Source: Savitreella phatthalungensis (taxonomy: Eukaryota). Taken from it: a DNA stretch of 64,000 nucleotides. The notes beneath the pieces were generated by a model that did not search any database, had not been told where the DNA came from, and worked only from the letters and a program-made list of their open reading frames with translations. The stretch covers positions 310,001-374,000 of the forward strand of contig AP039701.1 of assembly GCA_051599415.1 (NCBI GenBank), read 5' to 3'. This document shows, piece by piece, positions 48,630 through 60,575 of this stretch. Each line of letters begins with the position of its first letter. Positions within the stretch are counted from its first letter, which is position 1. The translations under genes were made by a program, and so were the position numbers.

Positions 48630-49135
48630 ACGTGCGTGTTCGCAACACGTAGCACTTATGACATTCGTTTTCCTCCAACACAGATCCTCCGATCTTACAC
48701 CTGCCTATCTACAGGAGTCTGATGTCGGATGCACGCATGCACATACTCTAGCAGCGTGGGAAGCGTACATGGGAGGACAGACCACGGCCCTCTGGACATG
48801 CTCGGCCAATCTCCTGAGCAAAATCGATCAGAGATGATGGAGCATCATAGTGGACCACGATGCGTACCTGCAGTCGAGACCTGTGCCGATCGCTGTGGTG
48901 CCGACGACGTCGAGGACCCTGCATGTCATGTACTCGTCGTCTGCATGTCATGTACCACTATGATGCTCCATCATCTCTCATTAACTTGCCCAGGAGATTG
49001 ACCGGGCAGGTCGAAAGGCCCGTGGCGCGTCCTCCCATGCTACTGTGTGTCATGTAAATGTCGGCACCACAGCAACCGGCGCAGGTCTCGACTGCCTCCA
49101 GGTACGCATCGTGGTCCACTATGTTGCTCCGTCAC
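48630..49135. pseudogene. Rearranged RecQ-like helicase remnants (motif V-VI fragments on both strands)
   Basis: Minus strand gives VVGTTAIGTGLDC/QVRIVVHYDAPSSLIDFAQEIGRA, then LLEYVHACIRH..CHKCY, with frameshifts and stops. Plus strand gives HYDAPSSLIN/QEIDRAGR (about 48955-49042) and GTTATGAGLDCLQVRIVVHYVAPS (about 49059-49134). Confidence 0.8.
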
Positions 49136-50640
49136 CTCTGCCCCTCAGAGCAGCCGTCTGCACAGTATACACATAGTCGTTGTGGCCCGGAGCTTTCTCT
49201 ATCTCACCATTTTTTCGGTGGTAGAAACGCTGTCCGGGCTGTCAATGATCGAGAGGCTGCTGCTAGTTGGAGGTACGTGTCAAGATTTGTTGATCTGACT
49301 ATCTAACTTGCCGGATGACGAGGTCTCGACTTATTGAAGCACGTCGACCCTGGCCGGATGGTCTGACTTGGCTGGACTGTGAGCGAGCGTGAAACTACAA
49401 GATCCTGTATGCACAGGCGGGAGAATGTCTGTGCGTGCATGAATGGGAGAATGATGGAAAGAAGGAGAGAAATCGGGTCGAATGCATCGACCCAGAATGT
49501 GATCCGTGCACGAAGCTTAATTCGCTTCTCTACTTAGTGCTCGTGCGAGAGTACCAGAGTAATGGCATGCTTCTCCGACCATAACTGCATGGCAGACATG
49601 AAATCGTTTTCCGCGTGATCCCTCTCGGAGAAATTCGTAGCTGGATTGAATATACTGTATCAAATTACTGTCAATCTGATACTTAGCAGTGGGTCACTTG
49701 CCGGGTATGACGCACACGTGCATACACTATAAACCCAGAAGTTAATGCTGTTCCCTATAGGCAGCTGCTCATCCATTTCCACACACATATACACCGAACA
49801 CAGCTGAACTCAAAATTAAGGTTAGGATATATGTGGAAAGGAACGAGATGGAATCTGCATGTCGAATACTTTTGTGCGGATTGTGAAATCACTATTGCTT
49901 CTTTTATTCTTTCGAATGTCTTGCATTGTTCGGTTTTGGTACCCTCAACGATCCTTTTCAGATTAGATCTCTAAAAACAAATCTAGAAGCAGTGGAATTC
50001 AGACGGGTATGGACGTCACTTTAAGGCGACATGCCAGTACGGAATCCTATAGTCAGTGTCCGAATGCGGGTCATGGATATCAGATACAGGTGAGAATGAG
50101 ATATACCACATGGCGCATCCAGACCTTTGCATTTGAAAGAGGACAAACCCAACTTTTGTCCTGGACGGGATTGACGCCATCAATTGGAATCGAATTTGAT
50201 GGTGTTTGACCTTGTTGAGTATGAGATCCTGAGGATTCCATGCTAATTAGAGATGAAATTCTGAACCCTTCCTTCCTCAATCGATCGCCTAACCATACTC
50301 TCTCATTGATCGGCAGAATATGTTCAGTGTCCTGTGAAGGGTCTACTGAGTAAAGTACTTAGTATTCACTACTGAGTGTTGAGTAATGTGATTCTAAGTA
50401 CTGTGGTTGTTGGTCTGCTCGCTCTCCATGACCAGTATTCTGTCTGGTATTCTGGCGCACTGAAGCGAGTCATAATCTGCACACGGAATCGGACAGCACC
50501 AAATGCATTCAAACAGGACGTGATTCATCAATGACTACACAAAGCTGACACAAGCCAAAACACATTCCGATCCTTCCACCTTGGAACCCGTCACCCGTGA
50601 CCCGCTTTCCAACCAAAACACTCGCAACCAAAACCTTGTA

Positions 50641-56756: not shown

Positions 56757-57302
56757 CTACTTGCTGCTTGGCGTATATTTAGGGAGTGTTGGGGAGACTT
56801 GCTGGCGCAATTTCGCCTCTTCAAGTGCCCAGGTTGACACACTAATTGACGAGTCAGTCTGTTTGTCCATTATCCAGGTGAGCATACGCGGAACGAACCT
56901 GGTGTCTGGACGATTCACAGCAATAAGAACCCCAAAGAGGCATGCGCCGCCAAAACCGTAGTTCCACAAGTTCTCCCATGGGAGCTTCTGTCGCTTCTGA
57001 CCTTTTGGAAGTATCTATACGAGTCAGCATGAACTAGAAAGCATGAATCATCGGAGTAAGAGAGCCAGGTCGCCCGCAAGGTTGAAGACGTGATCAAGTA
57101 GAGCTCAGTTGATCTGACCGCTGATCAACAATCTGCATCGAGCGAGTCTGGCTCTTGACCCTTAGCTGCGGCTGAGTCTTACCGGTTCGTTAAATAGACG
57201 ACCCTGGGGTGGAAAGACTGGTGGAGCGCCTCCTGCATGGCGGACCTGACCGACGGTGCGCCTTGCGGCCGGCCGCGTGATTGCTGCGTGTCTCGACAGC
57301 AT
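56757..57302 (-). CDS. NADH:ubiquinone oxidoreductase ESSS subunit (NDUFB11-like); exons 57302-57183, 57014-56899 and 56841-56757 (106 aa)
   Basis: Mitochondrial presequence MLSRHAAITRPAARR, then PQGRLFNEP|..KLPWENLWNYGF, a TM segment and RPDTS|VSTWALEEAKLR. GT-AG introns with CTGAC branch points keep frame. Confidence 0.88.
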
Positions 57303-57665
57303 CTCAGCGAATAAAAGACCCGAATAGATTTCGAAGGCGGTAGTATACGCTCTTCTTGCTATCGTTGTTGTCTCCTCATCAGCATGTCTGGCAAGCTCGA
57401 TCGCGATTGATCACGCACGTGTGTCACCAGCCACTCTTTAGCCACTCTTTCGAGATACGCCGAGCGTGAGAAAATGTTTCAATGCATGCAATTCGATTTC
57501 GGTAACTCTCCACCATCCTCTACAGCGTCTGTCGCCGAGCCACTGTCAGAGTGTTACACCGCTCAGGGCAGGGCGACCCTACTGGACACCCGCGGCAACT
57601 ATACAGGATAACGACATTCTATTAGTACAAAGAACATCGTCGACAACTTCCATCACATATACATA

Positions 57666-58979
57666 ATGGTACGGGCTTGAACACTAGCGACGAGGATGCG
57701 TGAGCATCTTCTACTCGCCTTTCGACAGTGGTTTTCGCCCTCGGAATACTGTTGCTTTGACCCGTGTGTACCCTACATATCGGGGCAGTTTCTGATTCGT
57801 CGCCAGTCTTGCGTGTTCTACACTGGAGATCACGCGAGGCTCGACGCAGAAGGAGGAGTGCGATGGCCATGGATCTCATGGCCTCTCACTCTGTTGATCG
57901 CTGTCCTTCCAGGTCGAGAGTATAGCTTTTGCTAGAGCTCGAGACCGGAAAACGTACGAGGAGAGGACTTTCCGGAATTGCACTTCGCATTGCGATGGTC
58001 CTCTGCTCTCGTGCTGACATTGACAACGCTGCTCACCTTTTGTGAGGTGCATGCGTGCCTGGCTCTGCCCGAGGCGATAGTCGTGCTGTTGAAAGGGTCG
58101 AGGATTGGAGAGAGATTGTGAGCTGCTTCTCGCTTTTGCTCACCGTCCTCGTCGCTTTATAAGAATCAGCCGGACAATAGAGACTAACAAATGACACAGG
58201 CACCGAAGGGCAAGACACCTGCTAAGGCACCATTCCCGGCCTCCAAGGCATCGGCCAAGAAGGCCCCTAAGAACCCTCTCCTCGAGAAGCGTTCGCGCAA
58301 CTTCGGCATTGGCCAGGACATCCAGCCCAAGCGCAACCTCTCCCGTTACGTGAAGTGGCCCAAGTATGTGCAGCTCCAGCGCCAGAAGAAGATCCTGTCG
58401 ATGCGTCTTAAGGTGCCGCCGCAGCTCGCCCAGTTCCAGAACACGCTGGACAAGAACACTGCCACTGAGCTGTTCAAGCTGCTGAACGCACACCGCCCGG
58501 AGACAAAGCAGGACAAGAAGGAGCGTCTGTCCAAGATCGCCGCTGCCAAGGCTGACGGCAAGGAGGCCGAGCAGACCCCCAAGCCACAGCACGTCAAGTT
58601 TGGCCTGAACCACGTCGTTTCCCTCATCGAGAACAAGAAGGCCCAGCTCGTCGTCATTGCTCACGATGTCGACCCCATCGAGCTCGTCGTCTACCTGCCA
58701 GCCCTCTGCCGCAAGATGGGTGTGCCTTACTGCATTGTCAAGGGCAAGGCCCGTCTCGGTACCGTCGTCCACATGAAGACTGCCGCCGCACTTGCCATCA
58801 CTGAGGTTTCTGGCGCTGCTAAGGACGACCTTGCCAAGATCGTCTCCGCCGTCAACGCAAACTTCGGCGACAAGTACGAGGAGCACCGCCGCCACTGGGG
58901 CGGAGGTATCATGGGCTTCAAGTCCCAGCGCGCTACCGAGAAGAAGCAGCGCGCAGCTGACGCAGCCATCAAGATCTAA
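57666..58979 (+). CDS. RPL8: 60S ribosomal protein eL8 (L8/L7a); exon 1 is ATG only (57666-57668), exon 2 is 58200-58979
   Basis: [65 protein letters not shown] donor, ACTAAC branch at 58183 and ACAG acceptor give MAPKGK. Confidence 0.95.
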
Positions 58980-59285
58980 ATGGTTTAGTTCCCGTAGCTG
59001 CATTCTCAATCTCACGTTTGTCATGTCAATCCTCTCGTGCGGCTTTATTGTCCTGTTGACGTCCTGCTCGCGCCTCTTGCGGCCTCTTGCCCCCACTTTG
59101 CTCATCACAGGATGCAATCGCTCAGAACAGCGAAGTCAATGCCTTTTGAGATGAGCATATTAATTAACGCTAATTCTAGACAAATTAGAAGCGATTCGCT
59201 CCTTGAGCGACTACAAGAATAAGGTTTGTGATACAAGCGTGGTCATGGTACTCTAGTCATCGTGATATCATTGCTCGTTGGCGTC

Positions 59286-60575
59286 TCAAAGGGTCGTTAG
59301 TGCAGATGTTGCACCGATCAGTCTGCAGAGCTCTTCCTCTGCCGCGAGCTCCTGCGCCCAACTCTGAGGTGGCAAGAAAGTGGTGAGGGGCGAGGAGCGG
59401 GGAGCGTAGTTGACCTCAGTGTTCGGCTTTGTCTTGTCGGTCGATACGATAACAAATTTGCGTGGCTTGGCGAGCAAAGCATCCATCAAGGGCTTCGGTT
59501 CGTCGTCGACCAGGCTCTCGTCATGTTCATCGTCCTCCCCGTCGATTTCTTGAAATGTCCTAGCATCGCAATCAGCAGTTTGGTATCCCGCTTGTGCTTC
59601 TTCATCATCGCAGTCGGAGCCCCAGTCGATGCCGGACTCATGCTCAACTGCGACTTCGGTGCACTGTGCGGGCAACTCGATTAGCTGCGGCAACAGGGTC
59701 GTGATATCGAATTCTCCAGAAAAGAGAGCTTCGAAACCGTCGATGTCTTCAACGTTGTCCACCGCTGGCTCTTTGACGAAGTCTTCGACGTTGTATTCTT
59801 TTGAGAAAGTGGCCATTTCAGCTGCCGAGCAGGTGTCAGGGGTCGTTGGAGCTGAAGACGAGGCGGAAGGGCCGTCGGTCAGGAAATCATCGAGCATCAG
59901 GTCGTCAAGAGAGAAGAATTCGTTGACCATGCCAGAAGTTGTTAGCTCGTGGGCGAGGTCGATCAACTCCAGCTGATCAGCTGGACGTACATTTTTAGCG
60001 CGCATCATTTGAGACCTTGCCTTGAACTGACGATCCATCTCATCGTATTTGGCCATCGCCCGGTCAAAGGGTGTGGCCGCGTGCTTTGGTTTGAGCTGTA
60101 CAGACTGAGCGTGATGAAGAGGAATACTCACGAGCTTGGGCAAAAGGAGCTCATTCTCGAAGTAATCGTTCATCACGACGTCGTCATTAATAGGGATTGA
60201 GGGCAAGTGTACGTGACTTGCTCCTTCAGAGGTGGCAAACACTTCGGTAGAGTAGGAACTCAAGACGGGCTCGGACAAGCTGGTGTCAAAGTGGCTGGCG
60301 ACCGAGACGTTCGGGCGACGAGGCGGGCTGTGACATTGCAACAGGTCTGATGCAAGCCATTCGAGATCGGTTGAGTCAATCGGATATGTAGCACGCACAG
60401 GAACAGCGTAAGGGGCGGAGCCGTGCGTGGTATGGAAGAGCTTGTTCGGGGTTGGCGCACGCTTTACAGGACGCAAGATCTCGATGGGTGTGACAGGCAT
60501 GAATCTAGGCTTCTGTCCATAGCCGAGTCCAAGACGAATGGTTGACCTCTGGTTGTTTGTGCGCGTAGCGGGCAT
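59286..60575 (-). CDS. Hypothetical protein with basic N-terminus and acidic C-terminal half
   Basis: About 430 codons open from ATG 60575, with a CA-rich leader typical of genes here; no recognised domain. Confidence 0.6.
   Translation of the reverse strand: MPATRTNNQRSTIRLGLGYGQKPRFMPVTPIEILRPVKRAPTPNKLFHTTHGSAPYAVPVRATYPIDSTDLEWLASDLLQCHSPPRRPNVSVASHFDTSLSEPVLSSYSTEVFATSEGASHVHLPSIPINDDVVMNDYFENELLLPKLVSIPLHHAQSVQLKPKHAATPFDRAMAKYDEMDRQFKARSQMMRAKNVRPADQLELIDLAHELTTSGMVNEFFSLDDLMLDDFLTDGPSASSSAPTTPDTCSAAEMATFSKEYNVEDFVKEPAVDNVEDIDGFEALFSGEFDITTLLPQLIELPAQCTEVAVEHESGIDWGSDCDDEEAQAGYQTADCDARTFQEIDGEDDEHDESLVDDEPKPLMDALLAKPRKFVIVSTDKTKPNTEVNYAPRSSPLTTFLPPQSWAQELAAEEELCRLIGATSALTTL

Follow-up and report, generated by a model that had tools for sequence, protein, structure and literature searches.

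A strongly folded start-codon intron in the eL8 gene of a deep-branching ascomycete carries a predicted zipper stem

The gene for ribosomal protein eL8 in the window (the whole stretch of 64,000 nt that was analysed) appears to be interrupted directly after its start codon by a 531-nt intron whose RNA is predicted to form one large structure, and the helix closing this structure would serve as a zipper stem that aids the splicing of the eL8 intron, a reading to which we give a probability of about 0.58. The structure proved real, a function for it is probable, and its rod interior may have further ones. From the modelled fold and its geometry, we infer that it forms in vivo and that it promotes splicing instead of restraining it. 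The intron is of a known kind, a zipper-stem ribosomal-protein intron in a known gene layout, the lineage and the gene being new.

The gene occupies positions 57666-58979 of the + strand and encodes eL8 (RPL8/RPL7A), with a match to Pfam PF01248 that bears out the placement of the protein in the L7Ae family made by an earlier note on this DNA. The protein is 61-72% identical to the nearest named fungal proteins (Saitoella, Yarrowia, Nadsonia, Pneumocystis and Pezizomycetes) and 75-88% identical to the closest eL8 sequences, which are known as proteins (P0002, P0006, P0007 and P0008). Exon 1 ends with the start codon itself (57666..57668), which adjoins the donor as ATG|GTACGG, and the phase-0 intron extends over 57669..58199. 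Its branch-point sequence, ACTAAC, is found at 58183..58188 and places the branch A (58187) 12 nt upstream of the acceptor G. The acceptor CAG ending at 58199 is in phase with the GCA CCG AAG that opens exon 2 (58200..58979), which carries the eL8 coding sequence, codon 2 through stop, as identified by PF01248 and by 68-72% identity with named eL8/L7A proteins of fungi. Rereading the sequence gave the same 531-nt intron after the ATG, with the same coordinates and splice signals, as the earlier note had proposed. Joining the ATG to 58200 produces M-APKGK, which matches the M-P/A-PK (MPPK/MPAK) starts of fungal eL8. Immediately before exon 2, the acceptor-proximal signature AATGACACAG (58190..58199), the sole AATGACNCAG match in the window, holds an in-frame ATG at 58191, and from this ATG begins a long open reading frame with the translation MTQAPKGK. 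Taken together, the splice signals and the reading frame indicate that 57669-58199 is a true start-codon intron, which would be spliced out of the eL8 transcript in the host. The host is an intron-poor, deep-branching ascomycete, and for a genome with 26 open reading frames of at least 180 aa in 64 kb the eL8 intron is of unusual length.

A comparison set of 80 eL8 loci from metagenome collections was used to examine the same position in relatives. None of them exceeds 71% protein identity, and therefore the rod described below has no alignable orthologue among them. In nine of the 11 related loci inspected, ATG|GT lies no more than 450 nt ahead of exon 2, and related start-codon introns are 202-371 nt long in the 17 loci with a delimitable intron. 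For example, contig L036 equals contig L033 minus 227 nt (GTAAGC...ATAG; GTAAGCAT...CAATGATAG) between the ATG and codon 2, both being identical downstream of the intron at 935 of 935 bases. L033 and L036 are an unspliced and a spliced transcript contig, respectively, of one organism, and as such they prove the layout in a relative. Also, unspliced contigs resembling eL8 transcripts are frequent among the related loci. The open reading frame call of P0007 begins MTNIQ|APKK and the extension of that of P0002 ends ...STDVLQ|APKGK, both running through CTAAC/CTGAC...CAG immediately upstream of APK. The in-frame ATG within the intron thus misleads programs that call open reading frames, so that public protein sets contain false N-termini, MTQ... 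or longer ones. A likeness between the 41-aa N-terminal read-through of P0002 and the translation of the intron was considered and rejected (score of 25 against 29.2 +/- 4.2, with 452 of 500 shuffled peptides scoring at least as high).

The minimum free energy (MFE) structure of the intron contains 181 pairs, being 101 G-C, 60 A-U and 20 G.U, most of them with pair probabilities of 0.8-1.0 according to the partition function. The closing helix joins a 5' arm (57686..57706) to a 3' arm (58137..58156) and is composed of 57686-57698/58144-58156 (13 bp, mean pair probability 1.00) and 57700-57706/58137-58143 (7 bp, 0.95), giving 20 bp in total with a bulged C at 57699. A long imperfect rod continues this helix, with a 5' strand at 57707..57789 and a 3' strand at 58028..58111. 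Its helices at 57707-11, 57714-30, 57735-44, 57754-56, 57763-77 and 57783-89 find their partners within 58028-58111, the pairings nearest the closing helix being 57714-57730 with 58084-58102 and 57735-57744 with 58069-58077, and a small hairpin (58118..58133, pair probability 0.85) bulges out of the rod 3' strand. At the tip, three branches leave a central junction. Hairpin A (57790..57851, pair probability 0.75-0.99) contains CTTGCGTG/CACGCGAG and has an inner stem at 57805-57815/57831-57841; hairpin B (57855..57892, 0.97-1.00), formed by GAGTG..GGCCATG/CATGGCC..CACTC, has its stem at 57855-57871/57877-57892; and branch C (57893..58027) comprises two hairpins, C1 (57907-57950), which includes the 10-mer GCTAGAGCTC and an internal loop of tandem GA/GA, and C2 (57954-58014), with its stem at 57954-57969/57997-58014. 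The 10-mer of C1 is the sole exact match in the window, and it resembles GCTAGAGCTCCGAGG of one subgroup of relatives. The large multibranched fold of the earlier note was thus recovered, and each helix that it had listed is present in the MFE structure, with probabilities mostly of 0.8-1.0. With respect to the splice sites, the branch point is mostly unpaired and AAUGA is unpaired in the predicted pre-mRNA fold, the donor GU and 57674-57677 are paired with 58168-58175 in the MFE structure (probability of about 0.86), and 57672-57679 pairs alternatively with the junction of acceptor and exon 2 at 58197-58205 (probability of about 0.4 in the pre-mRNA fold). These donor pairings could hinder U1 or could juxtapose the splice sites.

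The significance of this fold was evaluated against shuffled sequences and local controls. The sense intron reaches an MFE of -227.6 kcal/mol, against -181.4 +/- 6.6 kcal/mol for dinucleotide shuffles, which corresponds to a z-score of -7.03 (computed on 530 nt from 57670), and none of 100 shuffles folds as well. The controls are far weaker, being z = -2.51 for the antisense strand of the intron, with 1 of 100 shuffles as good, z = -0.18 for the 531 nt upstream of the intron and z = +1.03 for the first 531 nt of exon 2, so the z-score check suggested by the earlier note comes out in favour of the fold. After correction for GC content, only two better folds are found among 318 local windows of 531 nt, both strands counted, and these two correspond to both strands of a single inverted repeat at about 48.8 kb. 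Moreover, the arm zones of the closing helix form a duplex of -40.8 kcal/mol, a value reached by none of 2000 shuffles. In the genomic control, 56 of 18138 equally spaced position pairs are as good, which places the arms in the top 0.3% but does not make them unique, overlapping positions and the intron itself being included in this control. The symmetric internal loops of the fold show one A.C juxtaposition against the 20 G.U pairs, although MFE folding by construction prefers G.U to A.C. On the other hand, the raw difference in MFE between strands, 52 kcal/mol at the intron, is common locally (at least 52 kcal/mol in 11 of 159 windows), and therefore the strand argument relies on the z-scores together with the number of G.U pairs. 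All in all, it is the transcribed strand of the intron that carries the structure, and neither local composition nor DNA symmetry alone explains it.

The position of the closing helix relative to the splicing signals is what suggests its role. The helix starts 17 nt past the donor (57669-57685) and 30 nt (58157-58186) separate it from the branch A at 58187, in agreement with the spacings of 17 and about 30 nt read earlier, and the linker of 17 + 30 = 47 nt reduces a donor-to-branch distance of 518 nt to an effective 47 nt. In the account of Rangan et al. (2025, PMC12350175), a zipper stem has spacings of at least 10 nt and at least 20 nt, a total linker of 42-85 nt and a helix of at least 6 bp. 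The intron lies within these spacing limits, with 17 nt on the donor side, 30 nt on the branch side and 47 nt in total, and its helix has 20 bp with a predicted pair probability of 0.95-1.00, which is a thermodynamic prediction, whereas helix confidence in that paper comes from DMS-guided bootstrapping (PMC12350175). The word undescribed, which the earlier note had applied to the structure, is not borne out, since the closing helix fits the zipper-stem class as published in PMC12350175 and the start-codon intron had already been described in PMC1626468. In the proposed mechanism, the intron RNA would fold as a long rod with a multibranched tip, and the 20-bp closing helix, acting as a zipper stem, would bring donor and branch point together, with 47 nt of single-stranded linker between them; the pairing of U1 and U2 across a long intron would then become possible and lead to efficient splicing. 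Work on yeast supports such a role: zipper stems are reported in 32 of 88 probed introns (PMC12350175), the RPL7B work indicates that a zipper stem can be a splicing enhancer (PMC12311795), and in ribosomal-protein genes zipper stems and other intron structures are described as boosting splicing (PMC12311795; PMC13232506). However, zipper stems are not always promoters of splicing, because the zipper-stem mutants of yeast RPL28 are reported to have less retained intron (PMC12350175). As an observation that runs against the zipper stem here, the pairing of the donor with 58168-58175 could obstruct U1 instead of helping.

The introns of the relatives contain a conserved element of another shape. 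In 46 of the 80 loci the motif YCAATGA is located no further than 260 nt ahead of the coding match, with about 2.5 expected by chance (at least one of the 46, that in L036, being probably a match of chance), and TAGAG is present at most 175 nt upstream in 34 of these 46; in many related loci CTCAATGAY(C)AG stands directly before exon 2. RNAalifold gave no consensus on the first broad alignment of the related introns, which was too gappy, and sub-regions were therefore realigned. Inspection by hand, followed by counting, showed that UAGAG pairs through its GAG with the CUC that precedes AAUGA, and a covarying stem continues from there and encloses the branch point. In the resulting alignment (A3), 90.5% of cells are paired, against 83.0% in shuffles and 54-71% in slid controls, and 16 double changes are observed against 5.8, none of 500 shuffles reaching the observed value. 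A covariance model built from it, R1, matches 37 of the 80 related loci at E <= 0.01, of which 18 were seeds, the hairpin ending in CUCAAUGA before the acceptor. In the R1 alignment, which is fitted to the model, double changes are found at eight of 12 pairs, in 41 cells against 13.3 +/- 3.1. Rfam returned no matches at E <= 1 in 10 related loci. A box C/D snoRNA reading of the RATGA...CTGA blocks of the relatives was tried and discarded, no terminal stem being visible by eye and Rfam giving no matches in 10 loci. Li & Breaker (2017, PMC5640933) describe a candidate motif, rpl7-l8-s3, with two long hairpins and a conserved purine-rich strand in introns of L7/L8 genes, and their species list covers Pezizomycotina. 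Judging by this description and species list, the R1 element is probably the rpl7-l8-s3 motif (PMC5640933).

The window shares only the acceptor side of this element. It keeps AAUGACACAG at the acceptor, and the counterpart of its AATGACACAG in the relatives is CAATGACCAG or CAATGAYAG. However, the search of the whole window with R1 gave no match, and with filters off over 57400-58400 the best alignment, at 58154-58209, reaches 6.6 bits, with E = 0.27 in 1 kb, and leaves the helix out. An R1 alignment to 58100-58142, where a purine strand, GCUG, a pyrimidine strand and CUCA follow one another, scored 2.9 bits (E = 2.5) and was left unused. Because R1 has no match in the window, the intron was not filed as a member of the R1 family, and by its sequence it would be at most a remodelled relative that retains the acceptor-proximal signature. 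In a wider sense, comparison of these loci shows the start-codon intron of eL8 to be old, with conserved acceptor-adjacent RNA elements in many fungi.

Other explanations of the same data were weighed against the zipper stem. If there were no intron, transcription would begin within 57669-58199 and translation at ATG 58191, giving MTQAPKGK..., as do database open reading frame calls and one named annotation (P0001; P0067, from Nadsonia), and an in-frame ATG does lie 9 nt upstream of the proposed acceptor; yet ATG|GTACGG, ACTAAC and the in-phase CAG all concur, the identical layout is proven in a relative by L033/L036 and is recurrent across fungal eL8 loci, the spliced contigs of relatives start directly with MPPK/MAPK and their MTQ/MTN starts run through branch-point-like sequence, so this reading is scarcely credible. 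In another reading the structure would be neutral, a leftover of a foldback element or of a long inverted repeat that inserted into an older and shorter intron, with symmetry at the DNA level and no RNA function. The rod does amount to an imperfect inverted repeat with long arms of about 100 nt each, the antisense strand retains some folding advantage over shuffles (z = -2.5) and related fungal eL8 introns are shorter (200-370 nt). Nonetheless, the excess of G.U pairs (20, against one A.C juxtaposition) and the z-score of -7.0 on the sense strand against -2.5 on the antisense strand speak for an RNA, no matching target-site duplication is found beside 57686 and 58156, no second copy of the intron rod occurs within the 64-kb window, and the distances of the arms from donor and branch point are those compatible with a zipper. 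We consider a foldback remnant very unlikely. A stable RNA hosted by the intron, be it a snoRNA, a long-hairpin substrate of Dicer/RNase III or a stable excised intron, would be in line with the very stable fold and with a branch point just 12 nt from the acceptor, and ribosomal-protein introns host snoRNAs in many species. Against it, no AGNN tetraloop is present among the hairpin loops of the MFE structure, and the three Rfam matches at E <= 10 over 57000-59300 score 15-16 bits each, with gathering scores of 33, 65.3 and 95.5. The only one inside the intron, mir-9201 (58101-58143), has 15.6 bits for a gathering score of 95.5, the remaining two fall outside the intron equally far below their gathering scores, and the curated covariance models detect no box C/D or H/ACA snoRNA or other Rfam family at the intron. 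A hosted RNA is highly improbable, and the embedded structured ncRNA of the earlier note finds nothing near a gathering score in this covariance-model check.

A further alternative, which could be compatible with the zipper, is an autoregulatory switch in which excess eL8 would bind its own intron and block splicing, leaving an unproductive pre-mRNA, with candidate sites in the AAUGA at the acceptor or in one of the internal loops, for instance the tandem G.A loop of hairpin C1. This switch, argued by analogy, is a reasonable hypothesis but on balance unlikely. It draws on the PF01248 domain of eL8 and on the binding of K-turns by L7Ae proteins (PMC4005666), on yeast RPL7B, RPL18B, RPL28 and RPS22B, which are reported to be self-regulated through intron structures (PMC12311795; PMC13232506), and on the unproductive splice isoforms described for metazoan L7A/eL8 genes (PMC8047918). 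Also in its favour are the AATGACNCAG acceptor common to the window and to fungal eL8 introns, the covarying hairpin around the branch point, with CUC-AAUGA at its end, in 37 of the 80 related loci, the common occurrence of unspliced eL8 transcript-like contigs among relatives and the alternative pairing of 57672-57679 with 58197-58205 at a probability of about 0.4. However, a loose scan of the intron for the K-turn pattern (a C helix, a 3-nt bulge, tandem G.A/A.G pairs and an NC helix) gives 24 scattered combinations against 11.7 +/- 4.7 in shuffles, of which none includes AAUGA and none fits the MFE structure, and the loop of hairpin C1 is a symmetric tandem GA/GA with no bulge. Neither does R1 help: it has no match in the whole window, and its best alignment near the intron, at 6.6 bits (E = 0.27 in 1 kb), omits the helix. 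In the relatives, the invariant CUC-AAU-GA presumably resembles the bulged strand of a K-turn, and its CUC has two competing conserved partners, the GAG of UAGAG and GGCUUGAG; on alignment A4, RNAalifold pairs GGCUUGAG with CUCA...AGCC across the acceptor through eight invariant pairs with no covariation. These two partners could represent a switch or a k-junction. Pairing between the acceptor and the conserved upstream block, though, outdoes the shuffles in two of 25 related loci, where at most 10 of 200 shuffles do as well, and is no better in the other 23, L015, in which the script did not find the motif, being excluded.

A bolder version extends the switch to the family. The start-codon introns of eL8 would carry an ancient autoregulatory RNA across Ascomycota, with the acceptor AAUGA as an eL8-bound site similar to a kink-turn or k-junction that occludes the branch point and the acceptor. 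Here the partners of AAUGA would be the invariant UAGAG and the conserved GGCUUGA/GCUGG block, the two competing partners of CUC would form the switch, and the intron of the window would be a remodelled descendant that kept AAUGAC.CAG and replaced the branch-point hairpin by a rod from donor to branch. This is speculative and we consider it quite unlikely. Yeast L30 controls its own pre-mRNA, and if the family reading were true, eL8 would join L30 as the second eukaryotic L7Ae-family protein controlling the splicing of its own pre-mRNA (PMC5640933 treats L30 under the old name L32). In any case, the conserved acceptor-adjacent elements are a concrete place to look for autoregulation by eL8.

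Coming back to the zipper stem, the intron can be placed among known systems. Nielsen & Wernersson (2006, PMC1626468) describe start-codon introns as phase-0 introns between codons 1 and 2, enriched in ribosomal proteins, and the intron of the window shares with them the ATG-ending exon, the phase and a short lysine-rich ribosomal protein as product; as PMC1626468 defines it, that class depends on intron position alone and not on any structure, whereas the present intron is structured. With the R1 hairpin family it has in common the gene, the intron position, a far longer-than-typical intron and an AAUGA-Y(C)AG that adjoins exon 2. However, the UA-GAG...CUC helix that encloses the branch point in the relatives is missing here, and in its place the window has a rod from donor to branch, with the branch point unpaired. 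With L30 and the other autoregulators (RPL7B, RPL18B, RPS22B and RPL28) it has in common a ribosomal-protein host gene whose 5' intron is structured, and its product is of a family that recognises kinked RNA. The scan for K-turns gave no convincing K-turn geometry.

To our knowledge, the eL8 gene is intronless in S. cerevisiae, and zipper stems have to date been defined and probed solely in Saccharomyces and its close relatives. A zipper of textbook geometry in a distant ascomycete suggests a general rule, namely that long ribosomal-protein introns may remain spliceable by folding their ends together, a solution that may arise wherever such introns grow. In comparison with the zipper stems of yeast RPS17B, RPL7A/B, RPS11A and RPL28, as they are presented in PMC12350175, the host is a distant ascomycete and the structure is predicted from sequence, and the helix, with 20 bp, runs on into a rod whose arms are about 100 nt long. 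What is common to both is a ribosomal-protein host gene, a 5'-proximal intron of about 500 nt and a helix that goes from just past the donor to just before the branch point, with the 47-nt linker of the window inside the published limits (PMC12350175). Moreover, the RPL28 intron is described there as having elaborate multiway junctions, and an elaborate multibranched interior is a feature that it shares with the eL8 intron.

When the intron of the eL8 (RPL8) gene at window positions 57669-58199 is folded together with its exons, CGGGCUUG, located just 3' of the donor (57672-57679), is predicted to pair with the acceptor CAG|GCACCG (58197-58205) with a probability of about 0.4, in competition with an alternative predicted pairing to 58168-58175. 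In the related locus L049, the intron opens with 15-16 nt (88-103, GTACGGACTTGACAC) that closely resemble window 57669-57684 (GTACGGGCTTGAACAC); the eL8 protein of this locus is only 63% identical, and the intron starts of other related loci differ from these two sequences. Inside the predicted fold, hairpin C1 (57907-57950) contains a symmetric tandem GA/GA internal loop, with 57916-57917 opposite 57941-57942, and also a 1x2 loop placing A against GA, being both devoid of a K-turn bulge. Based on the modelled structure, these internal loops are possible candidates for protein binding. Upstream of the gene, a CACGTG E-box is observed at 57416-57421, about 245 nt from the start codon; sites of this type serve ribosomal-protein promoters in some yeasts. 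Elsewhere in the window, the top GC-corrected folding outlier among 531-nt windows corresponds to an intergenic stretch (48768-49140) holding a complex inverted repeat at the DNA level, with arms of 34-54 nt and 81-92% complementarity; the folding energy of a 531-nt window at this site is -264 kcal/mol for one strand and -267 kcal/mol for the other.

An in-frame ATG is present within the intron at 58191 (segment 58191-58199), 9 nt upstream of the acceptor, and ORF calls from it begin with MTQAPKGK. The same start is also present in one named annotation, from Nadsonia. Among the eL8 protein matches, P0001, P0007, P0016, P0067, and P0002 are tied to intronic-ATG or read-through starts, with comparable read-through N-termini in P0016 (Saitoella), P0007, and P0002. 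The MTQAPKGK and read-through N-termini are probably gene-model errors, arising from the exon with only one codon.

Many related eL8 contigs of 1.0-1.5 kb start 17-85 nt upstream of the ATG with the intron still present, and in further ones the intron is spliced out. For example, L033 and L036 form an intron-retaining and spliced pair from one organism, differing by a 227-nt intron; the comparison also includes L004, L005, L029, L031, L043, L063, and L071. If these contigs are transcripts, intron-retaining eL8 RNA would be abundant in several fungi.

Fungal eL8 start-codon introns share a conserved hairpin, in which UA-GAG is followed by a covarying stem around the branch point, then by CUC-AAUGA-Y(C)AG and exon 2. 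The covariance model built from it, R1, matches 37 of the 80 related loci (E <= 0.01; 18 of these were seeds), as in L005:196-270 and L044:111-186. In L006:24-101 and L062:38-114, the conserved GGCTTGAGC block lies within the loop separating TAGAG from CTCAATGA, whereas in the remaining loci it is found upstream of TAGAG; these two loci thus seem to carry the elements in permuted order. An Rfam search with 10 of the loci carrying the hairpin gave no match. The fungal eL8-intron hairpin probably corresponds to the rpl7-l8-s3 motif described in PMC5640933.
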